Assembly (NCBI GenBank): GCA_963674855.2
Contig: CAXXST010000001.1
Coordinates: forward strand, 458,744-522,743
DNA length: 64,000 bases
Direction of reading: 5' to 3'
From: Dehalococcoidales bacterium
Lineage (GTDB): Bacteria > Chloroflexota > Dehalococcoidia > Dehalococcoidales > G020351185
Made by a program: the position numbers and the translations under genes. Position 1 is the stretch's first letter. Each line of letters opens with the position of its first letter. This document shows, one piece after another, positions 3,412 through 63,691 of this stretch. The notes beneath the pieces were generated by a model that was not told the DNA's origin, ran no database searches, and was given only the letters and a program-made list of their open reading frames with translations.

Positions 3412-4005
3412 TTATAACTGCCTGTCTTTTGCCCGCTGCCAGACATGGAACAATCTGTGTCCGGCAGTAAACAGGCTAAAAGCGGCTATAACCGCCAGGG
3501 CAATAAACAACTGGTCTGTAAAAAGCCCCAGCGACAGTATGATAATTCTTTCCGGGCGGGTGAAAACCCCCACCGTGCATGAAATACCGGCTCCCTCTGC
3601 CCTGGCTCTTATATAGCTTACCAGCATGGAAGAAAGCATAACCGCACCGACCAAAACGACCCCGCCTGTGGAGCCTTCATTGGCGAATAGATAGAGAATG
3701 GCGATAAGCGTAACGCCTTCTGACATTCTATCCAGCGTTGAATCAAAAACGGCGCCGAAGCGTGTAGAGCGGTTGGTATGGCGTGCCAGCGCGCCGTCCA
3801 GCATATCCAGAAAACTGCCGAAAAGCACAACAAAACCGGCTGCCAAAAGGTAATCCGTGGCGATAAGCGCTGCCGCGCCGCCAGCCAGCAGAAAGCTGAA
3901 AACAGTCAGCGCATTGGGCGTAACGGGGGTTTTGGCTAATAATTTAACTATAGGGTCTGTTATAAAAACAGACACAATCTTGCGAAACCGTGATAAAGCC
4001 GTCAT
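3412..4005 (-). CDS. CDP-alcohol phosphatidyltransferase, candidate phosphatidylinositol-phosphate synthase
   Basis: 197-aa polytopic ORF carrying the full CDP-alcohol motif D-x2-DG-x2-AR-x8-G-x3-D-x3-D (LDMLDGALARHTNRSTRFGAVFDSTLDRM). The inositol specificity is inferred only from its clustering with ino1 and the PimA-like GT. Confidence 0.75.
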   Translation of the reverse strand: MTALSRFRKIVSVFITDPIVKLLAKTPVTPNALTVFSFLLAGGAAALIATDYLLAAGFVVLFGSFLDMLDGALARHTNRSTRFGAVFDSTLDRMSEGVTLIAILYLFANEGSTGGVVLVGAVMLSSMLVSYIRARAEGAGISCTVGVFTRPERIIILSLGLFTDQLFIALAVIAAFSLFTAGHRLFHVWQRAKDRQL

Positions 4006-4045
4006 TAAATATACTCACCTGAAAATAATATTTTATGATAATCCT

Positions 4046-5218
4046 TCAAACAGAATTTGATACAGAATTGTTTTTAGCCGCAGAATGCCGGTTAGGAGCG
4101 GATTCAAGGGTTTTGGTATAGTAATCAGCAACCCGGCGGGCAATTATATCCCAACTGTGTTCCTGTGCGTTAACCAGTCCCCTTTTCCCCATCCTTTGCC
4201 GCAGCGGCTGATTTTCTATAAGCGACGAAATGGCACGAGATAACGCTATTTCGTTCTTTGGTTCTACCAGCAAACCTTCCTTGCCGCTGGTAATAACACT
4301 GGCATAACCTTCAATGTTAGTAGCAACCACTGGCTTACCCAGAGCCATAGCCTCTAAAAGGACGATGCCGAAGCTTTCGCCGCCGGTTGCAGGAGAGCAA
4401 AAAATATCAGCCGTTTTATAATAGCGCGGCAGTTCGTCATAGGAAACCATACCGCGAAATACGATATCTTCAATATCGTTGCGTTTAACAAACTTTTCGT
4501 ATTTACGGCGGAATCTGACGCCGGGACCAACGACAATAAGACGGCAGTTGGGGTGGGTCCTCTTGACGCGGCGGTAAGCCCGCAGCAGATAGTTCAGCCC
4601 CTTGCGCTTTTCAAGGCGTCCTACGAATAGGATGTTCAGTTTGTCATCAACGAACTCCTCAATGGGTGCAGCATCAGGACAAAAATGCTTAAGGTCTATG
4701 CCGTTGGGAATAATATCATATTCGCCGTTTATATACTTGCTGGCATAGTTCTTGGCAGCGTTGGAAACGGCTATCCTGCCGTCCAGCTTGCGCTGGCGCA
4801 GCCGCAGTAAAATCTTGGAAAAAGGCCAGCCAAAGTTATAGCCGGGGCTGCCGTGGCAGGCATGGAAGGTGCCGATGTTAACCGCATTTGAAAAACGCAG
4901 CACGGCGCTGCATAGCATCGGCATAAACGGCTCATGAAGGTGAACAATATCAAACTTTTCACGCTCCATCACTTCTTGTATCTTGGACGCCAGTCGTAAT
5001 GAAAAACTTATGCGGATAGTAGTGCCGCGCACGGGGAACGGGCGCGCCTTGCCGATATGCAGAAAACGGTCATCATCAGCAGCGATTGAATGTGAAAGGG
5101 GAGATATAATCTTGACCTCGTGCCCCATATCTGTAAGCTGCTGATTAAGGGCGAGGATATGGTTGACAACACCCCCCGGATGACTAAAGTCATAAGGCGA
5201 AACCAGCGCAATCTTCAT
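4046..5218 (-). CDS. GT4 (GT-B fold) glycosyltransferase, PimA-like (candidate phosphatidylinositol mannosyltransferase)
   Basis: 390-aa ORF. The N-terminus MKIALVSPYDFSHPGGVVNHILAL..GHEV, the HLHEP motif and the GGESFGIVLLEAMALGKPVVA (E-x7-E region) closely resemble mycobacterial PimA as I recall it. It lies between a CDP-alcohol transferase and ino1. Confidence 0.7.
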   Translation of the reverse strand: MKIALVSPYDFSHPGGVVNHILALNQQLTDMGHEVKIISPLSHSIAADDDRFLHIGKARPFPVRGTTIRISFSLRLASKIQEVMEREKFDIVHLHEPFMPMLCSAVLRFSNAVNIGTFHACHGSPGYNFGWPFSKILLRLRQRKLDGRIAVSNAAKNYASKYINGEYDIIPNGIDLKHFCPDAAPIEEFVDDKLNILFVGRLEKRKGLNYLLRAYRRVKRTHPNCRLIVVGPGVRFRRKYEKFVKRNDIEDIVFRGMVSYDELPRYYKTADIFCSPATGGESFGIVLLEAMALGKPVVATNIEGYASVITSGKEGLLVEPKNEIALSRAISSLIENQPLRQRMGKRGLVNAQEHSWDIIARRVADYYTKTLESAPNRHSAAKNNSVSNSV

Positions 5219-5286
5219 AAAAAAACCGCCTTAATTACTTTGTTCCGTGTTTTATGTACCGCAAATCTATACAGCCTGATTCCCTG

Positions 5287-6390
5287 TTATTTTGAAGGCT
5301 TTTCAACAGGTTTGCACTCCGGTTGCTGGGTTATATATTCCTCAACCTTGCGGTGGGCTTCGTCATCTGTGTACTGCACCGGCGGTGACTTCATAAAATA
5401 TGAAGAGGGAGCTTTAAGCGCGCCCTTGATACCCCTGTCCAGAGCCAGCTTGCAGCAGCGGATGGCGTCTATAACCACGCCGGCAGAGTTGGGGCTGTCC
5501 CAGACCTCCAGCTTAAGCTCAAGGTTCAGCGGCACATCTCCGAATGCTTTGCCCTCCATGCGGATGTGGCAGAACTTACGGTCATCCAGCCAGGGAACAT
5601 GGTCGCTGGGACCTATATGGATATCGTCCGGGTCCAGCTTGTAGTCTAATTGGGAAGTAACAGAGTTTGTCTTGGATATCTTCTTGGATTCAAGGCGCTC
5701 GCGCTCCAGCATATTAAGAAAGTCAGTATTGCCGCCGAAGTTGAGCTGGTAGGTTTTTTCCATCCTGACGCCGCGGTCCTGGAAGAGGCGCGTCAGCACG
5801 CGGTGGACTATGGTTGCCCCCACCTGGGATTTAATATCATCACCGATGATGGGCAAACCCCTCTTTTCAAAGCGCTGCTGCCAGTATTTCTCACGGGCGA
5901 TAAAGACCGGAATGCAGTTTATAAAACCGCAGCCGGCTTCCAGTATCTGCTCTACATACCATTTGGTGGCTTCTTCGCTGCCTACCGGCAGGTAACTTAT
6001 GACTACATCTGTCTTGGTGTCTTTCAGGATTTTAACAATATCGGCGGTTGGTCCGGGCGCCTTTTCTATAACCTGTGATAGATATTTACCCAACCCGTCA
6101 TGCGTCATACCGCGTTCAACTTTGACGCCTAAAGGCGGCACTTCGCTGAATTTGAAGGTGTTGTTGGGAGGAGCGAAGATAGCCGTTGCCATATCCTTGC
6201 CGACCTTGTTCTTATCAATATCAAAGGCGGCTACGAAGTTAATATCGCTTATGTGATAACCGCCGAGGTTTGTGTGCATCAGACCGGGGATAAACTCAAT
6301 ATCCTTTGCTTTTTTATAGTATTCAACGCCTTGCACAAGCGATGAACAACAGTTGCCGACACCTATTACTGCTACATTTATTTTACCCAA
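5287..6390 (-). CDS. ino1: myo-inositol-1-phosphate synthase
   Basis: MIPS family ORF with NAD-binding N-terminus [18 protein letters not shown] and a conserved core. The track ORF runs to 6540, but that part has no homology-like sequence and overlaps a small conserved gene. I place the start at TTG 6390, preceded by GAAAGGGG (SD-like), giving 367 aa. Confidence 0.88.
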
Positions 6391-10130: not shown

Positions 10131-11496
10131 GTTTCTGCTTCTTCAGGCGAATGCCGTCAACAGCAGATTCCTTCTTGCGCATGACTTTCTTTTTCTTCTT
10201 CTTGGCTTTGGTATCTGGTTTGGGAGCTGTCGGCAGTATTATTTCCTCTGCAAAACGCAGCTCTTTTTTGGCAACTCTTTTAGCCGGAAGAATAAGAGAT
10301 TCCTGTTTTACGGGAGCGCTAACAGTTGCCTTGGTGGCATCAGCCTTTTTATCCTCTGCCACAGGGATAGCGGGGGTTTCTTCCTCTGTTGCCGTTATTT
10401 CGCTTACAAGCTCTTCTTCGGCGGTGGCATCTTCTTCTTCGGCAGTTTCAGCCCTTTCCTTTTCGGCATCAGAAGCGCTTTGGATATCTATACGCCAGCC
10501 GGTAAGTTTAACCGCCAGCCGGACATTCTGCCCTTCTTTGCCGATAGCCAGCGAAAGCTGCTTGTCCGGGATAACCACCGTGGCGGATTGTTCCTCTTCA
10601 TTGGTAATTACATCAGTCACCTTGGCAGGGCTGAGGGCGCTGGTTATAAAAGCGGCTATATCCTCGCTCCAGGTAACAACATCTATCTTTTCGCCACCCA
10701 ATTCGTTGACGATATTCTGTATGCGGATGCCGCGCAAGCCGACGCAACAACCAACGGGGTCAATGCCTTCCTGGCGTGCCATAACGGCTACCTTACTGCG
10801 AAAACCGGCTTCACGGGCGACAGATTTTATCTCTACGCTGCCGTTATAGACTTCGGGCACTTCAAGCTCAAATAAACGCCGCAGCAGGTTGGGGTGAGAA
10901 CGCGAAACCAGCAGCAGCGGACCCTTGGCAGACTGGGCAATTTCCAGCAGAAAAACCTTGAGCCGTTGACCAACCCGGTATCTTTCATTGGGCGCCTGTT
11001 CAGATGCCGGCATAACCGCTTCGGCGCGCCCAAGGTCTATAAATACCTGGCGTGTCTCTATGCGCCTTACCACGCCGGTAATTACCTCCCCCTCTTTATC
11101 AGCGTATTCTTCAAAAATGGCGCTGTGTTCAGCTTCGTGAAGACGCTGCAGGATAACCTGCTTGGCCGTCTGGGCGGCAATGCGCCCGGCATTGTGCGGT
11201 GTATCCTCTATGAGAATAAGGTCCTCAAGGCTGGCTTCGGCGTTGGTTTTTTTAGCATTGGCAAGCGATACTTCGGTTTGGGGGTCTGTAACCTTTTTGA
11301 CCACTGTTTTTTCTACCCATACCGTTACGCTTCCGTTGGAAGGGTCTATCTTGACGGATAGATTCTGCTCTGGATTAAAATTATTCTTGCGGTAAGCCGA
11401 TACCAGCGCTGATTCAACAGCGCCCAGTACCACCTCTCTAGAGAGGTTTTTTTCCGCCGCCAGCTGTGTTATAGCCAGTAAGAATTCACTCTTCAT
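10087..11496 (-). CDS. nusA: transcription termination/antitermination factor NusA
   Basis: 469-aa ORF with an N-terminal RNAP-binding domain, an S1 domain and two KH domains ([20 protein letters not shown]). It ends in an unusual acidic-then-poly-Lys C-terminal tail. Confidence 0.94.
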
Positions 11497-11699
11497 TCTG
11501 GAATCAGCCCTCCAATTCCATATTACATATCCTCTTTACAACAAAAAAGCGGGAATCAAACCCACTCTAATAACACATATTCAACTTATAAGAACAATAT
11601 AACACAATAAGGGGGGTATATGCAATACCGAGAATAAAAAACAGCCGTCATCAAATTGACACTTATGCGGCATAAGCGTAACATAATGAGAATTACAAA

Positions 11700-13223
11700 A
11701 TGCTAGCCAAGGTTACAAGCTGCGCACTGGTAGGGCTGGAAGGCGCTACGGTAGAAGTAGAAGTGGACATATCCCCCGGGCTGCCGGTGTTTACTATCGT
11801 CGGTTTGCCGGATACCGCTGTTCAGGAAGCCAAGGAAAGGGTGCGGGCGGCGATAAAGAATTCCGGGTTTACATTTCCCCTGAAGCGCATAATAGTCAAC
11901 CTGGCGCCGGCAGATCTTAAAAAAGCCGGACCTTCCTATGATTTACCCATTGCCGTCGGTATACTGATAAGCTCTGAACAGCTTGCGGCTGATGTCTCCG
12001 GGACGCTTCTAATGGGCGAACTTTCGCTGGACGGAAGTTTACGCCATACCAACGGCATATTGCCGATGGTAGCGTTGGCGCATCAGAAGGGCATAGAAAA
12101 TATAATCGTGCCGCAGAGCGATACCCGTGAGGCTTCCCTGGTTGAAGGCGCCGGAATTATACCTTTTGAATCGCTGGCGCAGCTGGCAGCATATCTGCGC
12201 GGCGAAATAGAAGCCCCCGAATGTAAAACAGATTTAGCAGATATTGAAAAAACCATTTCTGCAAAGCCGGAGGTGGAACTGGCGCATGTAAAGGGGCAAG
12301 AACATGTAAAGCGCGCTTTGGAGGTGGCGGCAACCGGAGGGCACAATGTTATAATGTGCGGTCCGCCCGGCAGCGGCAAGACGATGCTGGCGCGTTCCCT
12401 GCCGGGAATACTGCCGCCGATGACCAACGAGGAATCATTGGAAGTAACCAAGATATACAGCGTCACCGGTTTGCTGCCGCCGGATACACCGCTTATAAAA
12501 AGAAGGACGTTCCGCGCGCCGCATTATACAATCTCTAATGCGGGGCTGGTGGGCGGCGGGCATTGGCCCAGACCGGGTGAAATCAGCCTTAGCCATCGTG
12601 GGGTATTGTTTCTTGATGAGCTGCCGGAGTTTGGTCATGCACTGCTTGAAATATTGCGCCAGCCGATGGAAGACAAAATGGTTACCATCAGCCGGGCGCG
12701 TGGCAGCCTTACCTTTCCTTCAAACTTTATGCTGGTGGGGGCGATGAATCCCTGCCCCTGCGGTTACTACGGAGACCCTTTTCGCCAGTGCAGTTGCCAG
12801 CCCAGCATGGTATCACGTTACCAGAAGCGCATAAGCGGGCCGTTTTTGGACAGGGTGGATATATTTATTGAAGTGCCGCATATTGACTATGAAAAGCTAT
12901 CTGATGACAGGCTGGGTGAATCATCAGAAAAAGTGCAACAGAGGGTCGCTGCTGCCCGTTTGCTCCAGCAAAAACGGTTTGAGGGCACTAAACTGGCTTC
13001 AAATAACGAAATGACACCGCTTGAAGTCCGGGAATACTGCCAGACGGAAGAAGATGCCAAGGGGCTGCTAAAGGCAGCTATGAAACAGCTTTATCTTTCC
13101 GCGCGTGCTTTTCACCGCATATTGAAACTGGCGCGCAGCATCGCAGACCTGGAAAATAGTGATATAATAAAAGCAGGGCATATCGCCGAAGCCATCCAGT
13201 ACAGGCCAAGGCGAACGCAGTAA
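11700..13223 (+). CDS. comM: YifB/ComM family Mg-chelatase-like AAA ATPase
   Basis: 507-aa ORF with a Lon-like N-terminal domain, Walker A GPPGSGKT, Walker B VLFLDE and a C-terminal Cys cluster CPCGYYGDPFRQCSC. Confidence 0.92.
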   Translation: MLAKVTSCALVGLEGATVEVEVDISPGLPVFTIVGLPDTAVQEAKERVRAAIKNSGFTFPLKRIIVNLAPADLKKAGPSYDLPIAVGILISSEQLAADVSGTLLMGELSLDGSLRHTNGILPMVALAHQKGIENIIVPQSDTREASLVEGAGIIPFESLAQLAAYLRGEIEAPECKTDLADIEKTISAKPEVELAHVKGQEHVKRALEVAATGGHNVIMCGPPGSGKTMLARSLPGILPPMTNEESLEVTKIYSVTGLLPPDTPLIKRRTFRAPHYTISNAGLVGGGHWPRPGEISLSHRGVLFLDELPEFGHALLEILRQPMEDKMVTISRARGSLTFPSNFMLVGAMNPCPCGYYGDPFRQCSCQPSMVSRYQKRISGPFLDRVDIFIEVPHIDYEKLSDDRLGESSEKVQQRVAAARLLQQKRFEGTKLASNNEMTPLEVREYCQTEEDAKGLLKAAMKQLYLSARAFHRILKLARSIADLENSDIIKAGHIAEAIQYRPRRTQ

Positions 13224-13261: not shown

Positions 13262-13978
13262 ATGGATGAGAAGGGTAAGAAAAACGGTTACCGAACATTA
13301 AAGCGGATGAGGAAAAACCTGCTAGCCGGCATGCTGGTGGTTGTGCCGCTTGTACTTGCCGTCTGGATTTTATGGTGGGTATTTTCAAGCGTGGACAACA
13401 TGCTGCAGCCGTTGATAGAAGCGATAACCGGCAGTGAAATCCAGGGGCTTGGTTTTGCCATATTCCTGGTGCTCATATATATAACCGGCGTGGTTGCCAG
13501 TAACTTCCTGGGTAGAAAAATAATCAACTTTATGGAGGCGTTGCTTAGAAGGGTGCCGGTTTTCCGACAAATTTATACTGGCGCCAAGCAGGTGGTGGAG
13601 GGGCTTTCTGGGACTGGGATGAATAAAGCGGCATTCAGGGAAGTTGTTTTCGTGGAGTTCCCCAGGCCGGGGATGACTACTATCGCCTTTGTTACCAATG
13701 TAATAACAGACAGGCAAGGCACTAAATACTATGGACTATATGTGCCGACGGCGCCGATACCAACATCAGGCTATTTTGAGGTTGCCACCGAAGAACAGGT
13801 CATTCACACAAGTATAACAATAGACGAGGGCATAAAGATTGTTGTTTCCAGCGGTATGATACTGCCGGACAAGGTAGCTACCGGCAAACTGGAAGTAGAG
13901 GGAGAGCCTGAACATCTGGCAGATGCCTTTACATCACTGGGAAAGCCAGAAAATAAAACCCATAACAAGCATGGCTAG
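13262..13978 (+). CDS. DUF502 family membrane protein
   Basis: 238-aa ORF with two N-terminal TM helices and the conserved P.F..IY / PTAP.PTSGY pattern typical of DUF502. Confidence 0.75.
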   Translation: MDEKGKKNGYRTLKRMRKNLLAGMLVVVPLVLAVWILWWVFSSVDNMLQPLIEAITGSEIQGLGFAIFLVLIYITGVVASNFLGRKIINFMEALLRRVPVFRQIYTGAKQVVEGLSGTGMNKAAFREVVFVEFPRPGMTTIAFVTNVITDRQGTKYYGLYVPTAPIPTSGYFEVATEEQVIHTSITIDEGIKIVVSSGMILPDKVATGKLEVEGEPEHLADAFTSLGKPENKTHNKHG

Positions 13979-14278
13979 CCCAACGATAACAGTTATAAAA
14001 CCGCCTGTCTTCAAGCCAACTGGTTCGGGCACTTCGGGTGATTGCTGCATATATTCACGGACATCATGGCGTCCGGCGATAGCCTTGTAATAACCTTCCC
14101 TTTCTTTCCTGCCCCAGAACAGGGCGCCTATTCCAAGCAGAATGAAAAGACCGCCAAGCCCCATTACTATAAAAAGATCTGTATTCGGCATATGTATATT
14201 ACCCCAAAGCGGGTTGTTTCCAGGAAAAAAGTATACCTGTTCCCGGCACTGCTTGCAAGAAAGGATTGTAATCCCCAT
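13934..14278 (-). CDS. hypothetical small membrane protein
   Basis: 114-aa ORF with two predicted TM segments. The start is uncertain (an internal Met at about 14191 is possible). It overlaps the DUF502 3' end convergently by 45 nt. Confidence 0.4.
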   Translation of the reverse strand: MGITILSCKQCREQVYFFPGNNPLWGNIHMPNTDLFIVMGLGGLFILLGIGALFWGRKEREGYYKAIAGRHDVREYMQQSPEVPEPVGLKTGGFITVIVGLAMLVMGFIFWLSQ

Positions 14279-14310
14279 GCAGACAGCGCCGGAAGGTATT
14301 TAATTATAAA

Positions 14311-14790
14311 CTAGCTGATTTCAGCGGTGGCGCCGGCGGCTTCAAGCTTGGCTTTGGCGGCGGCGGCATCATCTTTGCTGACGGCTTCTTTGACCATCTT
14401 GGGAGCGGCTTCAACCAGGTCTTTTGATTCCTTCAGTCCAAGAGCGGTAAGCTCACGCACTGCCCTGATTACATTGATTTTGTTAGCGCCGACATCTTTA
14501 AGGGTAACGTTGAATTCTGTCTTTTCCTCTTCTTCAGCGGCAGGTGCGCCACCAGCAGGAGCTGCCGCGGCTGCCATAACCGGTGCGGCGGCGCTGACGC
14601 CAAACTCTTCCTCAAGGGCTTTTACAAGCTGGGAAAGATCCAGGACGGTCATATTTTTGACTTTGTCTATAATCTCCTGTGCCGAAGCCGTTACGTCAGC
14701 GGATTCTTTCTTGGCGGCTTTCTTGGCTTTGGGTTTTTCCTCGGCGGCTTTAGCCGGGGCTGCTTCTTCTGTTTTTTCTTCTTCAGTCAT
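14311..14790 (-). CDS. rplL: 50S ribosomal protein L7/L12 with N-terminal Lys/Ala/Glu-rich extension
   Basis: 159-aa ORF with a canonical L12 core ([26 protein letters not shown] ... [24 protein letters not shown]). The ATG abuts the rplJ stop, and GGAGG lies 10 nt upstream. Confidence 0.93.
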
Positions 14791-18883: not shown

Positions 18884-18956
18884 AGCCCACAACCAGACTC
18901 GAACTGGTGACCTCGTTCTTACCAAGAACGCGCTCTACCAACTGAGCTATGTGGGC
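18884..18956 (-). tRNA. tRNA-Thr (anticodon GGT)
   Basis: The cloverleaf folds by hand: acceptor GCCCACA/TGTGGGC, D arm GCTC..GAGC, anticodon stem CGTTC/GAACG with loop TTGGTAA, T arm ACCAG-TTCGAGT-CTGGT. CCA is not encoded. Confidence 0.9.
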
Positions 18957-19030
18957 ACATTCCCGTGCTTATATTATATAGAAGAATGAAGCCGGATGTC
19001 TAGCCCTCTATATTATATACCATTAAACAA

Positions 19031-19118
19031 TGGTGGAGGGGACAGGATTCGAACCTGTGTAGCCCTTCCAGGCGGCAGATTTACAGTCTGCTCCGATTAA
19101 CCACTCCGGCACCCCTCC
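19031..19118 (-). tRNA. tRNA-Tyr (anticodon GTA), long variable arm, CCA encoded
   Basis: Acceptor GGAGGGG/CCCCTCC, anticodon stem GCAGA/TCTGC with loop CTGTAAA, a long variable arm, T arm ACAGG-TTCGAAT-CCTGT, and a 3' ACCA. Confidence 0.9.
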
Positions 19119-19144
19119 CCAACTCCATAAAAATTAGCAGGCTC

Positions 19145-19217
19145 AGCCCGAGAGGGGACTCGAACCCACTAACCTGCCGATTACAAGTCGGCTGCGCTAC
19201 CATTGCGCTACTCGGGC
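19145..19217 (-). tRNA. tRNA-Thr (anticodon TGT)
   Basis: Acceptor GCCCGAG/CTCGGGC, D arm GCGC..GCGC, anticodon stem GCCGA/TCGGC with loop CTTGTAA, and T loop TTCGAGT. The T stem has one mismatch. Confidence 0.85.
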
Positions 19218-31728: not shown

Positions 31729-31804
31729 TGGCGCGCCCGGGGGGATTCGAACCCACGACACCCGGTTCCGAAGACCGGTGCTCTGTCCGCTGAGCTACAG
31801 GCGC
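31729..31804 (-). tRNA. tRNA-Arg (anticodon TCG), CCA encoded
   Basis: Acceptor GCGCCTG/CGGGCGC, D arm GCTC..GAGC, anticodon stem CCGGT/ACCGG with loop CTTCGGA, and T loop TTCGAAT. The T stem has one mismatch. Confidence 0.85.
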
Positions 31805-32022
31805 ATTGTATAATTAAGGCATGCAACAGCGGGGATGTCAAGTAAAATCCGAATTGCTTATTTATATTCAATGTTTTTGTTAATATAGCTTTTATTCCCT
31901 GGCTTGTCTGCCATTGAAAACAGAATAGTAAATAGAAAGCCTGCCGAGGGCGGGTGGGCAGTGAAAAAGAAAAGATAATAAAGAACGCAAGTGGAAAAAG
32001 GGATTACAAAAGAAAGAAATAT

Positions 32023-32099
32023 TGGGGTGAGTGAAGGGATTTGAACCCTCGATCTCCAGGGCCACAACCTGGCGCCTTAACCGCTAGGCCACACTCACC
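32023..32099 (-). tRNA. tRNA-His (anticodon GTG) with encoded G-1 and CCA
   Basis: An extra 5' G pairs with discriminator C. Acceptor GTGAGTG/CACTCAC, anticodon stem CCAGG/CCTGG with loop TTGTGGC, and T loop TTCAAAT. Confidence 0.9.
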
Positions 32100-52903: not shown

Positions 52904-54079
52904 ATGAAACTGGTCGTAGTTGGCTTTGGGCAGTGCGGCGGCAGGATTGCAGATGAGTTTGAAAGACTGGATAGAAGGGCGCGCAGCCTGCGCGGCATAG
53001 AGATAATTATAGACGCCTTTGCTGTTAATACAGATTCAACCGATATGTCCGGATTACACTCAATAAAACCGGATTACCAGCACCGCATACTTATAGGTTC
53101 CGGTACCACCCATGGTCATGGCGTAGCCAAGATAAATGAAGTTGGCGCTGATATAGCCAGGGAAGACTCTGATAAGGTAATAGACGCCATGAGGGGCAAC
53201 CAGAGGCTCTTTGAAACGGATGCCTTTTTGCTGGTTGCCAGCGCTGCTGGCGGTACTGGTTCCGGGGCGGTATCGGTGATAGCTAAGGCATTGAAGGAAC
53301 GCTTCGCTGAAAAGCCGGTATATGCTCTTATAGCGCTGCCTTTTGAGCATGAAGAGGTAAATGAAGAAAGGGCTTTATATAATACGGCTGTCTGCCTTAA
53401 ATCGGTCTATTCTATAGCAGATGCCGTTATACTGGTGGATAACCAGAGATACGTAAGAAAAGACTATTCATTGCAAAGCAATATGACGAAGATAAACCAG
53501 CTTATAGTAGAGCCGTTCTTTGATATGCTGTGTGCCGGTGAAGAGAAAAAGAAACGGCACATTGGCGCCAAGACGCTGGACGCCGGCGATATAATACAAA
53601 CTCTCTGTGGATGGACGGCTATCGGTTACGGCGAAATAAAGTTACCGCTTATTACATTGCCTACAGACTGGTCAAAGAATTTCAGAAAGCGCGGCACCAA
53701 GACGCACAAGGGGCTGGAAGCGATGGACCAGGCGCTGAGTGATATGTCTATAGAGTGCAATCCGCAAGATGTTAACCGGGCGCTCTACCTGCTTTCGGCG
53801 CCGGTTAAAGAGATGAACATGGACATGGTAAAAGAGATGGGAGACTATCTGCGGACTTTTGCGCCGCAGGCAATTATAAGGAATGGAGACTATCCCAGGG
53901 AAAAGGGCTTGCTGGATGTTAGCGTTATACTGTCTGAGCTCAGCGATGTTGAAAAGGTAAGGTATTATTACGAGAAATCAGCGGCACTGGCGCAAGAGAT
54001 GAAGAGAAGGCAAAAAGCGAAGACTTCAAAGGCTGCCCTAACCGAAGATGCAGGCAAGGATGTGCCGACACTGCTTTAG
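52904..54079 (+). CDS. tubulin/FtsZ-superfamily GTPase, CetZ-like (paralog 1)
   Basis: 391-aa ORF with T1 loop VVGFGQCGGRIADEF, T4 signature AAGGTGSG, VDNQRY, a T7-like LDAGDIIQTL, and GDYP in the C-terminal domain. The SD AAGGAGG is present. Confidence 0.8.
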   Translation: MKLVVVGFGQCGGRIADEFERLDRRARSLRGIEIIIDAFAVNTDSTDMSGLHSIKPDYQHRILIGSGTTHGHGVAKINEVGADIAREDSDKVIDAMRGNQRLFETDAFLLVASAAGGTGSGAVSVIAKALKERFAEKPVYALIALPFEHEEVNEERALYNTAVCLKSVYSIADAVILVDNQRYVRKDYSLQSNMTKINQLIVEPFFDMLCAGEEKKKRHIGAKTLDAGDIIQTLCGWTAIGYGEIKLPLITLPTDWSKNFRKRGTKTHKGLEAMDQALSDMSIECNPQDVNRALYLLSAPVKEMNMDMVKEMGDYLRTFAPQAIIRNGDYPREKGLLDVSVILSELSDVEKVRYYYEKSAALAQEMKRRQKAKTSKAALTEDAGKDVPTLL

Positions 54080-54969: not shown

Positions 54970-55088
54970 AATAATCCCCCTGAAGAAGATAGCTGCGGTG
55001 TGTATTATAGCACAAAAAAAAAGACGGTGGTTAAGGTTTGCAATAGAGGCTTTATATATTTGACACTTACAGCATGAGGTGATATATT

Positions 55089-55270
55089 CATAAAAAGGAA
55101 TATAGTTGATTACCAGCCCTTCGAGTTGCCCCTCCTAACGGCTTTTGGTCTATGGAATGCAACCGATAAGGTACAAGGGGAAACCTTTATGCCGCCCGTA
55201 TTTGGAAAGGAGGGTGAACAGGATAGCGGATTTCCTGTTTATAACGCCTCCATAGGGGGCGTTTTGTTTA
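55089..55270 (+). promoter_or_regulatory. candidate Moco (molybdenum cofactor) riboswitch with terminator, upstream of moaA
   Basis: It lies downstream of TTGACA-17-TATATT (55060..55088). Long-range pairing CCCTCC...GGAGGG is possible, and the 3' element GCCGCCCGTATTTGGAAAGGAGGG resembles the conserved Moco-motif 3' half as I recall it. A terminator hairpin AACGCCTCC-ATA-GGGGGCGTT plus TTGTTTAT follows (55243..55270). Confidence 0.5.
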
Positions 55271-55324: not shown

Positions 55325-56308
55325 ATGACAGGACTTTTGGATAAATACCACCGGCGAATTGATTATATGCGGATTTCGGTAACTGACCGCTGTAACCTGT
55401 GTTGTATCTATTGCACTGAACGAGATATGCCCCACCTGACGCATGAAGACGTCTTACGCTATGAAGAGATAGAAAAAATAGTGCAGGCGGCTGCCGCGAT
55501 GGGTGTTAAAAGCCTGCGCCTGACAGGCGGTGAGCCTTTGGTAAGACCGAATCTCGGTAAGCTGGTTAAAATGCTGACTAACATTGAAGGGATTGATGAT
55601 ATCAGCCTGACAACCAATGGTACAATGCTTGCCGGATGCGCCCGGGAATTGAAAGAAGCCGGTCTTATGAGGGTCAATATAAGCCTGGATACATTCAAGC
55701 CGGAAAAATTCAAGCAGATAAGCGGCGCTGATAAACTGAAGGATGTATTTGAAGGCATTGAAGCCGCTAAAAAAGCCGGGTTGATGCCGGTTAAGATAAA
55801 TACAGTGGTTATGCGTGGTATAAATGATGATGAGTTGCTTGATTTTGCTGATAAAACAAAGGAAGATGACTGGCATATAAGATTTATAGAAAAGATGCCG
55901 CTGGTGGCAAGCGAACCCGGGAATAACGATATGGTATCCATAGAAGAAATGATGGCTATTATACAGAAGGAATATGGAAAACTGGAGCCGTGCATGTCAA
56001 AATCCGGGAAAGGGCCGGCGAAATATTACAGGTTGCCGGGCGCCAAGGGAACACTGGGTTTCATAGGCCCGGTAACGGATTGTTTCTGCGCCACCTGTAA
56101 CCGCTTCCGCCTGACCGCAGATGGCAGATTACGACCATGCCTGCTGGAAGAGGATGAGGTAGATATAAAAGGGCCGTTGCGTGCCGGCGCCAGCATAGAA
56201 GAACTGGCAAAATTGATGCAGCAGACGGCTGAACTGAAAAGGGAACGTCATCGCATCGGTAAGGACTTTGTTTCCGGTAAACGTAAGATGTGGCAGATTG
56301 GCGGATAG
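55325..56308 (+). CDS. moaA: GTP 3',8-cyclase MoaA
   Basis: 327-aa ORF with the radical-SAM motif CNLCCIYC and a C-terminal auxiliary cluster CFCATCNRFRLTADGRLRPC. Confidence 0.95.
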   Translation: MTGLLDKYHRRIDYMRISVTDRCNLCCIYCTERDMPHLTHEDVLRYEEIEKIVQAAAAMGVKSLRLTGGEPLVRPNLGKLVKMLTNIEGIDDISLTTNGTMLAGCARELKEAGLMRVNISLDTFKPEKFKQISGADKLKDVFEGIEAAKKAGLMPVKINTVVMRGINDDELLDFADKTKEDDWHIRFIEKMPLVASEPGNNDMVSIEEMMAIIQKEYGKLEPCMSKSGKGPAKYYRLPGAKGTLGFIGPVTDCFCATCNRFRLTADGRLRPCLLEEDEVDIKGPLRAGASIEELAKLMQQTAELKRERHRIGKDFVSGKRKMWQIGG

Positions 56309-60219: not shown

Positions 60220-62106
60220 ATGCTGAAAGATGAAATAAACGAAGGTGAAGAGATAGCAAAATCAACCAAAGCAGCGGTTGAGGAGTCTATAAAGGTATCG
60301 CGGGAAGCCATAAAAAGCGCCCAGAGAATCAGCAAAGCTAACAAAAAATACGCCGATGAAACAAAAAAGGCGGCTCAGGAAGCTATAAACCGGGCTGATA
60401 GAACTGCAAGAACAGCAGAGGAGATGGCGCAGGAATATGCCAGAAAATATGAAACGGCGATAGCCCGCGCCGAAAAGGCTGCCGAGATAGCCGCTGAAAC
60501 AACCGATGCGCTGAACAGGGGTTTCATGCAGGCAATGGAAAGAGCCGAAGCCAGCCTGAAATCAACACAGGAAAGCGCAGAGGCATTAGCTGTTTCGTAT
60601 AGGGAAGCAATTAAAAAGGCAGAGGAAAGAGCAGAGGCAAGCATACAATCAACGCAAAGAACTGCCGAAGAAAACATAAAATCAACACGGGAAAACGCCG
60701 AAGCATTAGCTGCTTCCTATCGGGAAGCAACAAGACAGGCGGAAGAAAGGGTTGAAGAAAATATACGGTCAGCACGGAAAATCGCTGAGGAAAGTATAAA
60801 GTCAACCAAAGAAACCGCAGAGGCTTTGACGGCGGCTTATAAAGAAACAGCCATTCAGGCTGAAGAGCAGGTAAACGAAGTAAAAGAAAGCGTGAGAGCA
60901 GCCATACGGGAATCCCAGAAGACAATGAAAAAGGTTGATAAGAATATAAGGACGACACAGGAAAAGGCAGAGCGCTCTATAAGCGTAGCCCGGGAGGTGC
61001 TTTTAACAGCCGATGAAATGGAAAGAACGGTTGGCGAAGACGCCAGCGAGGCTCTGCGCGTATCCACAGAAGCCAAAAGCCGGGTTGAAGAGGTGGTTGA
61101 ACTGGCACGAAAAGTTACATCAGAGGCCAAGATAGCCTCGAGGGATGCGGTGCGCAGCGCTGAAAAGGCGGCAAAAACCGCAGAAGATTCGGTGAAAACA
61201 TATAATACGGATTTCAACAAGGCGATAAGAAAAGCCGAAGAAGCCAGTGGCTGGGCAAGGCAGGCAGCCGAGAAATCAATGAACAAATCGCAGGAGGCCA
61301 TAAAGCGCATAGAAGAAATGAGCCGATCCTCCAGAGAGGTTGCCGAGGAGTCTATAGAAGTATCGCGCGGGGCAATAGCCCGAGCCGAGGAAGTGGGCAA
61401 GGAAGCGTTAACCGCCGCCGAAGAAGCGCAAAAAGCATCGCGGGAGGCGGCGCATATAGCCGAAGAGATGAGCAAATCAGCCAGACAGTTGGCTGAAGAA
61501 TCAGTGGCAGAGTCCCGGGAATCAGCCAAAAAAGCTTATGAAATCAGCAAATCGGCAATGGATACAGTTATTGCATGGAAGGAAGAGTTCCAGCAGGCAT
61601 TAAGTAAGGCGGAGGAAATAGTCAATTCCGCTATAGAGATAACCGGAAGCTCAAAGAAAACATCGCAGGAAGCCATAAAGCAGATTGAGGAAAAGAGCCT
61701 GTCGGCAAAGCAGGAAGCAGGGAAAGCAATAGCCGCCGCCAGACAAGCTGCCGAAACATCCAGAAAAGCCGCTCAGAAGGCTGCCGATGCCTGGATAGGC
61801 ACTTTCCGAGAGCTGGCTGACGAAGCCGGAGACGTCCGGCGCACGACGGGCAGAATAACCCGTAATATAGCCGAAGAAATGGCAAAGCTGCCGGAAGATA
61901 TTGAAGACGGAGTGGTGCTGGAATGCAGCAATGAAGCGGCGCCAACAGAAGTAAAGGAAAATGGCAAGGGCGGAAAGAAAGCGGAAAAGAAGGGCGTTAA
62001 AGATATGCGCAAATCCCGCCTGGAAGCCCTGGAAAAGATGTTTGCTTCTAACAAGGGCGAAACGGAAGACGACAGCCCGTCTATAGATTTAGAAGACGAC
62101 GACTAG
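60220..62106 (+). CDS. Ala/Glu/Lys-rich, predicted all-alpha coiled-coil protein with 40-aa tandem repeats and acidic C-terminal tail
   Basis: 628-aa ORF with no TM segment or signal peptide. It has a pervasive A-x-E-x-[SA]-x-K/R heptad- or 11-mer-like pattern, three exact-period 40-aa repeats, and the tail GETEDDSPSIDLEDDD. The SD AAGGGAAGG is present. Confidence 0.75.
   Translation: MLKDEINEGEEIAKSTKAAVEESIKVSREAIKSAQRISKANKKYADETKKAAQEAINRADRTARTAEEMAQEYARKYETAIARAEKAAEIAAETTDALNRGFMQAMERAEASLKSTQESAEALAVSYREAIKKAEERAEASIQSTQRTAEENIKSTRENAEALAASYREATRQAEERVEENIRSARKIAEESIKSTKETAEALTAAYKETAIQAEEQVNEVKESVRAAIRESQKTMKKVDKNIRTTQEKAERSISVAREVLLTADEMERTVGEDASEALRVSTEAKSRVEEVVELARKVTSEAKIASRDAVRSAEKAAKTAEDSVKTYNTDFNKAIRKAEEASGWARQAAEKSMNKSQEAIKRIEEMSRSSREVAEESIEVSRGAIARAEEVGKEALTAAEEAQKASREAAHIAEEMSKSARQLAEESVAESRESAKKAYEISKSAMDTVIAWKEEFQQALSKAEEIVNSAIEITGSSKKTSQEAIKQIEEKSLSAKQEAGKAIAAARQAAETSRKAAQKAADAWIGTFRELADEAGDVRRTTGRITRNIAEEMAKLPEDIEDGVVLECSNEAAPTEVKENGKGGKKAEKKGVKDMRKSRLEALEKMFASNKGETEDDSPSIDLEDDD
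60556..60915 (+). repeat. three tandem 120-nt (40-codon) in-frame repeats inside the coiled-coil gene
   Basis: The units start at 60556, 60676 and 60796, with the consensus [LI]KST[QRK]E[SNT]AEAL[AT][VA][SA]Y[RK]E[AT]..[KQ]AEE[RQ]. DNA identity between units is clearly visible by eye. Confidence 0.85.
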
Positions 62107-62115
62107 ATTATTAAA

Positions 62116-63291
62116 TTAAAGCAGCGAGGGAATGTCCTTGAAGGCTTCCTCTATGCCCCTGTGCTGGAAATCTATGCTTCCCTGACGCCTCTTGGCAGTA
62201 GATATATAGCTTATCGCTTTTGTGAAGTAGTTCATCACTTTCTTTGAATTGACCAGTTCTGAAAGTATGGTGGTTACCTCAATCGTGTTCTTGCCTCTGG
62301 GGTAATCACCGCTTCTTATGACGGCTTCGGTTGCCATACTCTTCAGTGAAGAAGAAAGCTCTTTTATAAGGTCCATGCTCATCAGTTCGTGCGGCGCCGT
62401 CAGCAGGTATAAGCCCTTTCTTGCGTCTGTGGGGTTGCACTTCAGTGAAAGCTCTCCCAGTGCTTCATCCATAACCTGGATACCCTTTTGTGTAGAGCCG
62501 CCTTTATCCCTGAAATCGCGTTTGCCGTCAAAGGGAAGCCTCATGCGGGACATCTTCTCCCTGCCATGACCGATAACCGTCCAGCCTGCCAGCGTCTGGA
62601 TAATGTCTCCGGCGTCCAGTACACGGGAACCGACATACCTGGAATCCGTCTCTTCGCCGGCGCAAAGCAGGTTATAAAACGGCTTGACGATATGATAATT
62701 GATTTTAGCCAGGTTGTTTTTTATAGAGACGTTTTTGGTGATGTAACGCTGGTTATCAACCAGGAAAATGGCATCTGCCGCAAGATAGGCGGACTTGAGG
62801 CAGGTGCCTACATTATAGATAGACCTCTCCTCGGTAATCTCTTCATATTTGAAGGGCAGGACAATCATGTTGTAAACCGGCTTATCTACAAAACGCTCCT
62901 TAAGCTGCTGGGTGAATGCCGGAACAGAGCCCGAACCGGTTCCGCCGGCAGCCGAACCAACCACCAGAAAGGCATCCGTGTCAGCGAACTTATCGGTGGC
63001 GCGGATAGCTTCTATAACTTTGTCTCCATCATCATGGGCAATTTCAGCGCCGATGTCGTTCATCTTGCCGACGCCATGACCGCCGGTCTTCTTGCTGCCG
63101 ATGAGAATTCGGTGCTGGAAATCAGACTTTATATAGTTAAGCCCACTGAGGTCAGCCACATCTGTGTTGACCGCCAGGATATTGGTAACTATGGAAAGCC
63201 CGCGCTGGGCGCGGGCAACTCTATTCAAACGGGAGAATTCGTCGGCAATCCTGCCGCCGCACTGACCGCAACCTATAACCAGAAACTTCAC
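62116..63291 (-). CDS. tubulin/FtsZ-superfamily GTPase, CetZ-like (paralog 2)
   Basis: 391-aa ORF with a GTG start preceded by GGAGG. It has T1 VIGCGQCGGRIADEF, T4 AAGGTGSG, VDNQRY, LDAGDIIQTL and GDYP. About half of its positions are identical to paralog 1 by eye. Confidence 0.8.
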   Translation of the reverse strand: MKFLVIGCGQCGGRIADEFSRLNRVARAQRGLSIVTNILAVNTDVADLSGLNYIKSDFQHRILIGSKKTGGHGVGKMNDIGAEIAHDDGDKVIEAIRATDKFADTDAFLVVGSAAGGTGSGSVPAFTQQLKERFVDKPVYNMIVLPFKYEEITEERSIYNVGTCLKSAYLAADAIFLVDNQRYITKNVSIKNNLAKINYHIVKPFYNLLCAGEETDSRYVGSRVLDAGDIIQTLAGWTVIGHGREKMSRMRLPFDGKRDFRDKGGSTQKGIQVMDEALGELSLKCNPTDARKGLYLLTAPHELMSMDLIKELSSSLKSMATEAVIRSGDYPRGKNTIEVTTILSELVNSKKVMNYFTKAISYISTAKRRQGSIDFQHRGIEEAFKDIPSLL

Positions 63292-63389
63292 TTCAAACCT
63301 CCGTGTGCTGTTATTCGTATTACCCTGAGGATAATTGGGGCGTTCTGTAAATATCTACTGCGATTGGCGTTTGAAAAGCCAACCTATAA

Positions 63390-63454: not shown

Positions 63455-63691
63455 CTACCAATTAAATATGGATTTAAGTGATTGATATAAAAAATAGTCA
63501 ACAACTCCCCAAGCAATTAAACCTGATGGCAACATAATAAATCCTATAAGCGATTGTATAGCCCCTGAACAATTCTCGCCAAAAACTGCGTCCGTGGTTT
63601 TCTCGAATAAATAGTAGACGAGTGCAGCAGCAGCTAAACCAGCTATAAATAGGATAACAACAACTACCACTGCCCCTAGGAAGTCACCCAT
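63455..63691 (-). CDS. hypothetical small membrane protein
   Basis: 78-aa ORF with two hydrophobic helices, located in the AT-richer right-end segment. Confidence 0.45.
   Translation of the reverse strand: MGDFLGAVVVVVILFIAGLAAAALVYYLFEKTTDAVFGENCSGAIQSLIGFIMLPSGLIAWGVVDYFLYQSLKSIFNW

Follow-up and report, generated by a model that had tools for sequence, protein, structure and literature searches.

Tubulin-superfamily GTPases of the CetZ family have been described as archaea-specific (PMC9856176, PMC11621097). CetZ-like sequences in Chloroflexota-Dehalococcoidia were noted in passing in 2023, under the label 'CetZ-like' and as a paraphyletic set (PMC9871819). In CetZ1 of Haloferax volcanii, the amphipathic M-loop is essential (bioRxiv 2024.04.08.588506) and changing the C-terminal tail from LESLF to AESGG abolished rod formation (bioRxiv 10.1101/2024.04.08.588506). 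The tail of bacterial FtsZ is a docking peptide. That of Escherichia coli, DYLDIPAFLRKQAD, binds FtsA, ZipA, MinC and SlmA, and I374 and L378 within its DIPAFL core are critical for FtsA, ZipA and MinC (PMC4117426); the Bacillus subtilis tail reads DIPTFLR (PMC6657595), and the Corynebacterium glutamicum peptide DDLDVPSFLQ has been co-crystallised with SepF (PMC7118173). The tail proline is near-universal in bacterial FtsZ, and archaeal FtsZ tails centre on GID (PMC8178401). Here, we analyse a 64,000-nucleotide stretch of contig CAXXST010000001.1 from a Dehalococcoidales bacterium (the window, by which we mean the stretch at its full length) that carries two genes of this superfamily, par1 and par2. 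Their products are intact, ancient paralogues of a CetZ-type GTPase and end in a common short tail, which we propose would dock both of them to one membrane adaptor.

A sequence-only reading had pointed out two tubulin-superfamily open reading frames (ORFs) of 391 amino acids (aa), 8 kb apart, with about half of their positions identical and with matching T1, T4, VDNQRY, LDAGDIIQTL and GDYP segments. The pair and its main features are located as follows, with the basis of each entry in brackets:

62116..63291, minus strand: par2, CetZ-family tubulin-superfamily GTPase, 391 aa, GTG start (ORF, Pfam, orthologues, AlphaFold2 model, Foldseek).
52904..54079, plus strand: par1, CetZ-family tubulin-superfamily GTPase, 391 aa, ATG start (ORF, Pfam, 53% identity to par2, 120 orthologues).
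63298..63302, minus strand: Shine-Dalgarno sequence GGAGG of par2, 6 nt 5' of the GTG start (read in the sequence).
62590..62619, minus strand: T7 loop and helix H8 of par2, LDAGDIIQTL, residues 225-234, with the putative catalytic Asp229 (alignment to 4b46).
53576..53605, plus strand: T7 loop and helix H8 of par1, LDAGDIIQTL, as in par2 (pairwise alignment).

Both ORFs are thus where that reading placed them, and 8,036 nt separate them. By BLASTP, the proteins share 208 of 391 residues (53%) over their full length, with 74% positives and no gaps (E = 4e-156), and GQCGGRIADEF, SAAGGTGSG, VDNQRY, LDAGDIIQTL and GDYP are identical in the two, so that the description stands in every part.

The CetZ-like label given to the pair is likewise upheld by domain profile, sequence ranking and structure ranking, which agree. 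Both proteins match PF00091 Tubulin (E 2.7e-30 and 3.5e-28) and PF21011 CetZ_C (53.2 and 60.9 bits; gathering cut-off 21.6). Neither reaches the NCBIfam FtsZ equivalog TIGR00065 (61.8 and 55.1 bits against the 295.2 needed), and the genomic setting is not that of the dcw or mraZ-mraW-ftsA-ftsZ cluster, the neighbours being nuoA-H, degV, moaA/C, a MOSC gene, moeA, moaB, a USP gene and ccL (see below). The best phmmer matches in the PDB are 4b46, 4b45 and 3zid, all of them CetZ. An AlphaFold2 model of par2, built from a 70-sequence alignment, has the tubulin/FtsZ fold with a predicted local distance difference test score (pLDDT) of 84.3 and a predicted template modelling score (pTM) of 0.88. When the PDB was searched with this model by Foldseek, the same three structures came out on top (4b46, CetZ1; 4b45, CetZ2; 3zid, Methanosaeta CetZ; E 7e-28 to 1e-21). 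Their target-normalised template modelling scores are 0.90, 0.90 and 0.80; FtsZ structures come next, starting at E 8e-20, with 0.69-0.83, and tubulin entries, like FtsZ entries, rank below the CetZ structures.

The anatomy that emerges from alignment and model comprises a predicted GTP-binding core with T1 and T4, an acidic and putatively catalytic T7, a CetZ-type C-terminal domain, H11, a linker and a tail. GQCGGR in T1 and AAGGTGSG in T4 are invariant in 70 sequences drawn from both paralogue groups, and so are D226, G228 and D229 of T7. D229 aligns with the Glu of SSE in VVDSSEIINTL, the T7 loop of CetZ1 (4b46). Since both copies keep this acidic residue, there is no sign of an asymmetry like that of alpha/beta-tubulin. 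At the C-terminus of the par2 model, H11 (residues 350-369) is followed by disorder (370-377) and a short helix (378-390). The M-loop region, residues 244-262 (53633-53689, plus strand, in par1; 62506-62562, minus strand, in par2), has the lowest confidence in the model, with pLDDT around 48. It is far more variable in the par2 group (1.3-1.6 bits) than in the par1 group (0.5-0.9 bits), and par1 keeps a hydrophobic KLPLITLP..W..F that is reminiscent of the amphipathic M-loop of CetZ1.

Both genes are under strong purifying selection. Measured for each copy against its nearest orthologue DNA, nonsynonymous divergence (dN) amounts to 0.11-0.13 and synonymous change has reached saturation (proportion of synonymous differences, pS, 0.72-0.84), and both copies are at the modal length of their own orthologue group. 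Neither gene is thus a pseudogene, which the sequence-only reading had named as a way in which its proposal could fail. The orthologue sets, taken from public databases, hold at least 120 sequences per paralogue at 68% identity or more (240 in total); the par2 set consists of an identical protein (P0001) and 119 orthologues. Across both groups, 129 positions are conserved and identical, and only 11 are fixed differently: G75A, E94D, Y149H, V161T, G162A, T163V, Y206F, S222A, F356Y, F384G and S389T. All of these differences are conservative except F384G, which lies in the tail.

Such restraint bears on one of the two suggestions made from the sequence, namely that par1 and par2 co-polymerise. 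They would then assemble as a heterodimer of the BtubA/B or alpha/beta kind or in mixed protofilaments, with the tail decorating a composite filament. The absence of any indel since an old duplication, the strictly kept length of 391 aa, the identical T7/H8 segments, the 129 common positions and the small number of fixed differences would all suit partners in one polymer. Several of the fixed differences fall in interface loops of the nucleotide face: G75A in T3, Y149H in T5 and S222A just before T7. Yet both copies keep all nucleotide-binding and T7 catalytic residues, which leaves no division of labour of the alpha/beta type, and the fewness of the fixed differences also argues against such a division. 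The archaeal paralogue families of this kind studied so far have distinct functions, as in CetZ1 versus CetZ2 and FtsZ1 versus FtsZ2 (PMC9856176; bioRxiv 10.1101/2020.06.04.133736).

The C-terminal region divides into two parts in each paralogue:

62119..62151, minus strand: conserved tail of par2, residues 381-391, EEAFKDIPSLL (entropy, invariance, AlphaFold2 helix).
54044..54076, plus strand: conserved tail of par1, residues 381-391, EDAGKDVPTLL (entropy, class of the -2 residue).
62152..62211, minus strand: variable linker of par2, residues 361-380, from the end of H11 to the tail (entropy; pLDDT below 50 at 372-376).
53984..54043, plus strand: variable linker of par1, residues 361-380 (entropy 1.62-1.68 bits).

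The tails are those read by eye as ...AGKDVPTLL and ...AFKDIPSLL, and the layout proposed with them, a short conserved tail after a variable linker, recurs in both paralogues and in their orthologues. In an alignment of 234 of the 240 orthologues, column entropy falls from 1.15-1.30 bits in the par2 linker to 0.35 in the tail, and from 1.62-1.68 to 0.33 in par1; in both, the tail is as constrained as the GTP-binding loops. Among the 240 orthologues, the core D-[IV]-P-[ST]-L-L hardly varies. Those of par2 end F[KR]DIPSL[LF], with D386, I387 and P388 invariant in 114 of them, and those of par1 end [GS]KD[VI]P[TS][LV]L. An independent sample came from a scan of species-representative genomes (GTDB, one genome per species), in which 492 stretches encode relatives; all locus counts given here refer to the best 78 of these. 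Among the 111 complete CetZ-like genes in the 78 loci, 110 end in [DE][ILV]P.L[LFI] followed by 0-1 residue. Three par2 orthologues of 404 aa (P0042, P0074 and P0099) carry 13 additional residues past the motif (...KDIPSLVSPPNSVRSFIEDR), which places it short of the extreme C-terminus in these proteins.

A trivial explanation, either chance likeness of two short C-termini or a decaying, unexpressed duplicate, can be set aside, as the tail is kept in all 240 orthologues and in 110 of the 111 genes from species-representative genomes. Nothing was found in its favour; the one weak point is that promoter-like matches 5' of each gene are no more frequent than in shuffled sequence. It is opposed also by the low dN and saturated synonymous divergence of both copies, by their intact length and catalytic residues, and by the detection in proteomics of presumed Dehalococcoides mccartyi orthologues annotated as Tubulin/FtsZ (PMC8163811). 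We consider it already refuted by the orthologue alignments, and give it next to no weight.

A variable linker followed by a conserved terminal peptide is, as far as alignments can tell, the architecture of a docking peptide. The tails of the two paralogues are not equivalent, however: the core is common, and the flank differs by paralogue. Two residues before the Asp, all 193 par2-type genes have F, L, I or V, and all 156 par1-type genes have S, G or A. Five of the six core positions agree with the bacterial FtsZ peptide; at position 5, Leu stands in for Phe/Tyr, and the basic extension is lacking. A tail that mimics FtsZ as a bacterial adaptation was considered and is weakened, since CetZ-like proteins of Bathyarchaeia (KDIPPLL) and of a metagenome-assembled genome (MAG) of Thermococci (FDLPPL) share it. 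Most of the diverged relatives in the Dehalococcoidia half of our tree carry tails of this Pro type as well, and haloarchaeal CetZ tails have a non-Pro form (DIDSLL, RIDGLL and, in CetZ1, LESLF). Its presence in archaeal CetZ-like proteins makes the Pro-type tail an old feature of this branch rather than a recent imitation of FtsZ.

It is conceivable that the tail binds no partner protein at all, and instead contacts the neighbouring subunit within the filament or binds the membrane directly as an amphipathic element. An AlphaFold model of the CetZ1 filament from the Duggin laboratory places the tail on the adjacent subunit, and the tail mutant fails to form rods (bioRxiv 10.1101/2024.04.08.588506; bioRxiv 2024.04.08.588506). 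In par2, the tail is modelled as a helix (378-390, pLDDT around 70), and its helical hydrophobic moment on the Kyte-Doolittle scale is high, 2.18 for RGIEEAFKDIPSLL. Membrane-targeting sequences of FtsA and MinD give 1.0-1.4. Conversely, the moment of the par1 tail is much lower (1.37), without a hydrophobic residue at -2, and a mid-motif Pro together with acidic residues (EE, D) is atypical of membrane-targeting helices. A disordered, variable linker of 20 residues before a strongly conserved end peptide is also the classic layout of a docking motif. On balance, we find a tail that does no partner docking quite improbable.

The surroundings of par2 supply candidate partners. Directly 3' of it, and convergent with it, lies a gene for a long helical protein, ccL:

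60220..62106, plus strand: ccL, all-helical protein with repeats, 628 aa, its stop codon 9 nt from that of the convergent par2 (tblastn, repeat, AlphaFold2 model).
61993..62046, plus strand: conserved C-terminal helix of ccL, residues 592-609, ...SRLEALEKMF..., ahead of an acidic tail (motif, AlphaFold2 model).

When the neighbours in the window were used as tblastn queries, a ccL counterpart was found directly 3' of par2 in about 70 of the 78 loci. In most Dehalococcoidales genomes (L012-L078), a second gene, ccS, lies between the two (e.g. 11249-11773, minus strand, in L044), and 29 loci are arranged par2 (+), ccS (-), ccL (-), par1 (+), with the tubulin genes 3.0-3.7 kb apart; in four, par1 and par2 stand in tandem with gaps of 35-228 nt. 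Together, par1, par2, ccS and ccL form a conserved four-gene module in most relatives. The module is not intact in the window, where a block of DegV, molybdenum cofactor (Moco) biosynthesis and USP genes separates par1 from ccL-par2 and where par1 is inverted. The context on the par1 side (par1, DegV, MoaA, MoaC, MOSC) is also found in the complete genome CP070676.1, and ccS is absent beside par2 in the window and its closest relatives (L001-L011). One locus (L012) has three CetZ-like genes in 16 kb (3623-4798, 5027-6190 and 13531-14703), a par1-type and a par2-type gene in tandem and a second par1-type copy on the other strand.

Gene order speaks on both sides of the question of co-assembly. 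The constant co-occurrence of par1 and par2 on the same contigs and their clustering, about 3 kb apart or in tandem, would be expected of subunits of one polymer; in the common arrangement, however, two genes on the opposite strand stand between them, and they are not co-transcribed. Taken with the protein-level evidence above, a joint polymer seems to us possible but on the unlikely side, and of the two suggestions made from the sequence, a shared docking partner looks the better supported.

Members of the ccL family are 500-900 aa long and rich in A, E, K and R. In the window protein, the sequence repeats every 25 residues (autocorrelation 0.86, compared with -0.23 +/- 0.08 after shuffling, with peaks at 25, 50 and 75), and hydrophobicity has a period of 3.59 residues. 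This is close to 25/7 and gives ccL the look of an extended, straight amphipathic helix and not of a coiled coil built on heptads. Its AlphaFold2 model is all-helical, with four long helices, and of low confidence (pLDDT 62.7, pTM 0.30); helix 592-609 sits between disordered flanks. This helix carries the family's C-terminal motif, [IM]E.RL[ED].LA[RK]MY (in the window as the close variant RLEALEKMF), after which comes an acidic tail. The pattern R[LM]..L[ASTK].M[FYL] hits 71 of the 6,840 six-frame ORFs in the loci, 69 of which are the gene beside par2. That the helix serves as a membrane-targeting amphipathic helix was considered and dropped on account of its low hydrophobic moment (0.63-0.70). 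No significant Pfam family was found for ccL, the sole match being ApoLp-III at 21.9 bits, below the cut-off of 36.3, and a protein homologue search returned 8,000 word-sharing candidates with none at or below 1e-5, having probably been swamped by low-complexity sequences. Relatives were instead traced by synteny (tblastn) and by the C-terminal motif. The ccS proteins are a helical family of 130-190 aa with conserved AY..Y and QAW.IF/Y motifs; they match no Pfam family, and a ccS profile matched only designed helical bundles in the PDB, a composition effect. A natural relative in the PDB was found for neither ccL nor ccS. On the other side of par2, about 165 nt 5' of it and on the same strand, lies a 78-aa ORF (63455-63691, minus strand) with two predicted hydrophobic helices; it recurs in none of the 78 loci, and we dropped it as a candidate conserved anchor with two transmembrane segments.

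The host of the pair is a Dehalococcoidia bacterium and not an archaeon. The window contains a bacterial L10 leader, a Moco riboswitch before moaA, a bacterial IF-2 with IF2_N, RecJ, a nuo operon and starts led by Shine-Dalgarno sequences. Named homologues are labelled 'Dehalococcoidia', 'Dehalococcoidales' or 'Chloroflexota bacterium', and 77 of the 78 related loci come from MAGs of the Dehalococcoidia lineage, so that the window and these loci depart from the archaeal host range ascribed to CetZ. The exception (L018; QMXQ01000207.1, 2,539 nt) was deposited as 'Candidatus Bathyarchaeota archaeon' and has a par2-type gene with 65% identity, followed by a ccL fragment bearing the Dehalococcoidales C-terminal motif. 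It is probably a mis-binned Dehalococcoidia contig. In a midpoint-rooted neighbour-joining tree of 75 sequences, without support values and with most representatives unlabelled, the par1 and par2 groups are sister clades, a further Dehalococcoidia group (P0241) is their next neighbour, and H. volcanii CetZ1 falls in the other half. We read this as a duplication that probably arose inside the bacterial lineage.

Two more distant groups of CetZ-like genes differ in their neighbours. The P0241/P0392 clade (L082-L084), a third from Dehalococcoidia, has the tail KDLPSLE. Its CetZ-like gene is always followed, in convergent orientation, by a gene whose 457-aa product carries a terminase large-subunit C-terminal domain and by an ORF of 114 aa; ccL and ccS were not found beside its CetZ-like gene in these three loci. 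The P0417 clade (L080, L081), with the tail LLPDL, combines a diverged CetZ-like gene with a conserved downstream ORF of 327 aa without a Pfam match. It is surrounded by resolvases, IS605 OrfB/TnpB, IS66 transposases and a group II intron reverse transcriptase, and may therefore be carried on a mobile element.

Among other features of the window, the Moco riboswitch (55107-55228, plus strand, 55.2 bits) is followed by a terminator-like hairpin (55243-55263) and lies directly 5' of moaA (55325-56308), moaC and the MOSC gene, with a strong promoter-like site at 55060-55088. The ribosomal protein L10 leader (RF00557; 15333-15467, minus strand, 67 bits) is 5' of the L10 and L7/L12 ORFs, and tRNA genes are found at 18884-19217 and 31732-32098.

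Dehalococcoidales have lost their peptidoglycan genes, keep mraZ-mraW-ftsA-ftsZ and have an S-layer-like wall (PMC10608941). In D. mccartyi strain 195, DET0342 and DET0343 encode FtsA and FtsZ, and two extra 'FtsZ' genes, DET0589 and DET0636, are present (PMC5102406). In another D. mccartyi data set, a 'tubulin/FtsZ GTPase' (btf_0551), an 'FtsZ' (btf_0595) and a nearby hypothetical protein (btf_0548) were abundant in disc-shaped cells of pure cultures and low in barrel-shaped cells of co-cultures, a correlative observation (PMC8163811). We infer, for the btf genes from annotation and gene numbering, that these proteins and DET0589/DET0636 are the counterparts of par1, par2 and ccL.

As a whole, the observations are best explained by a CetZ-type pair whose filaments are docked by the common tail to one membrane adaptor, a reading to which we assign a probability of about 55%. 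In such a system, par1 and par2 would both assemble into GTP-dependent filaments, and the common tail would serve as a docking peptide through which either kind of filament reaches the same adaptor on the cell membrane. Candidates for the adaptor are FtsA, the natural ligand of which is the near-identical FtsZ tail, and the helical proteins of the module. Retention of ftsA in Dehalococcoidales means that an FtsA with a pocket for such a peptide is available in these cells. The paralogue-specific residue beside the core, hydrophobic in par2 and small in par1, could tune affinity or add a second contact. By analogy with CetZ1 of the S-layered haloarchaea, the system would probably control the shape of these wall-less, disc-shaped cells or their division.

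Several points weigh against docking to a common adaptor, and against FtsA as that adaptor in particular. The position of Phe or Tyr in FtsZ is taken by Leu, and the tail stops three residues past the Pro, so that the post-Pro helix would be only one turn long. As the Pro-type tail also occurs in archaeal CetZ-like proteins, it did not arise to fit bacterial FtsA, and may first have bound something else. A tblastn search of the window and the 78 loci with a B. subtilis FtsZ query found no ftsZ (E <= 1e-3). If the tail lies on the neighbouring subunit, as in the CetZ1 filament model, it would be an assembly element and not a docking peptide. Finally, the link of ccL and ccS to the pair is one of synteny, and the window's own clade is without ccS beside par2.

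CetZ-like genes in Dehalococcoidia have thus been published before, and the paralogue pair, its tail and the module were not found in the literature searched. Jointly, they point to a possible bacterial cytoskeleton that has not been studied. Proteins billed as archaea-specific shape-control tubulins are carried by a large bacterial clade, with at least 492 relatives in species-representative genomes. The carriers include the family of the bioremediation organism Dehalococcoides, the pair is strictly conserved, and it comes with dedicated partner genes. This raises the question of how hosts that gave up the peptidoglycan wall hold a disc shape and divide. The FtsZ-like tail and the retained FtsA and FtsZ offer a concrete and testable model for the wiring of a second tubulin-type polymer to the membrane. 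The tail in CetZ-like proteins of Bathyarchaeia and Thermococci suggests that the [DE]-[ILV]-P-x-L-L code predates the split of FtsZ and CetZ or is widely shared, and so bears on the evolution of C-terminal tail docking across the tubulin superfamily. A bolder and, in our view, unlikely version is that Dehalococcoidales, behind their archaeal-style S-layer, run a dedicated second cytoskeleton of archaeal type, composed of the two CetZ proteins and of the lineage-specific helical-repeat proteins ccL and ccS, that is plugged into the divisome anchor FtsA by its FtsZ-like D-I-P-x-L-L tail and sets the disc shape, with one anchor serving FtsZ and CetZ alike. Were it true, Bacteria would have their first functional CetZ system, and with it a natural example of a cytoskeleton grafted across domains through a shared tail code.

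How, then, does the pair compare with known systems? Closest are CetZ1 and CetZ2 of H. volcanii (4b46, 4b45), which share the Tubulin and CetZ_C domains and the acidic T7 residue, are the top matches in sequence and structure, have H11 followed by a short conserved hydrophobic tail (LESLF in CetZ1), occur as several paralogues per genome and belong to a host with an S-layer-type envelope without peptidoglycan. The present pair differs in its bacterial host, in an identity of 25-29% over the structural alignment, in the Pro of its tail (DIPSLL as opposed to DIDSLL, RIDGLL and LESLF) and in its place in the tree, CetZ1 being in the other half from the Dehalococcoidia clade. A module with two helical proteins has not been reported from archaeal cetZ neighbourhoods, for which other neighbours are listed (PMC9856176).

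Bacterial FtsZ belongs to the same superfamily and has the same succession of core, variable disordered linker and short conserved end peptide, the latter with the common core D-[IV]-P-x-[FL]-L, including the equivalents of E. coli I374, P375 and L378. Of the proteins on which it docks (FtsA, ZipA, SepF), FtsA is encoded in Dehalococcoidales genomes. In contrast to FtsZ, the present proteins stay below the TIGR00065 cut-off, lie outside mraZ-mraW-ftsA-ftsZ and have a CetZ-type C-terminal domain; their tail has Leu in place of Phe/Tyr and none of the basic residues that follow the core in FtsZ.

BtubA/BtubB of Prosthecobacter are likewise two tubulin-superfamily paralogues that always occur together in a bacterium, were probably acquired across domains and adjoin a helical accessory gene, btubC. 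BtubC is a tetratricopeptide repeat protein, whereas the accessory proteins here are long helical repeats rich in A, E and K. Unlike BtubA/B and alpha/beta-tubulin, both present copies keep the full set of predicted catalytic residues, with LDAGDIIQTL identical in the two, and the fold is nearer to CetZ and FtsZ than to tubulin by Foldseek. Archaeal FtsZ1 and FtsZ2 are of another family, their motif is GID, and Dehalococcoidales have a canonical FtsZ besides the pair. Like par1 and par2, they diverged long ago and have C-terminal motifs that resemble each other; a common SepF anchor is expected to bind both (PMC8178401), which provides a precedent for two polymers that share one docking partner.

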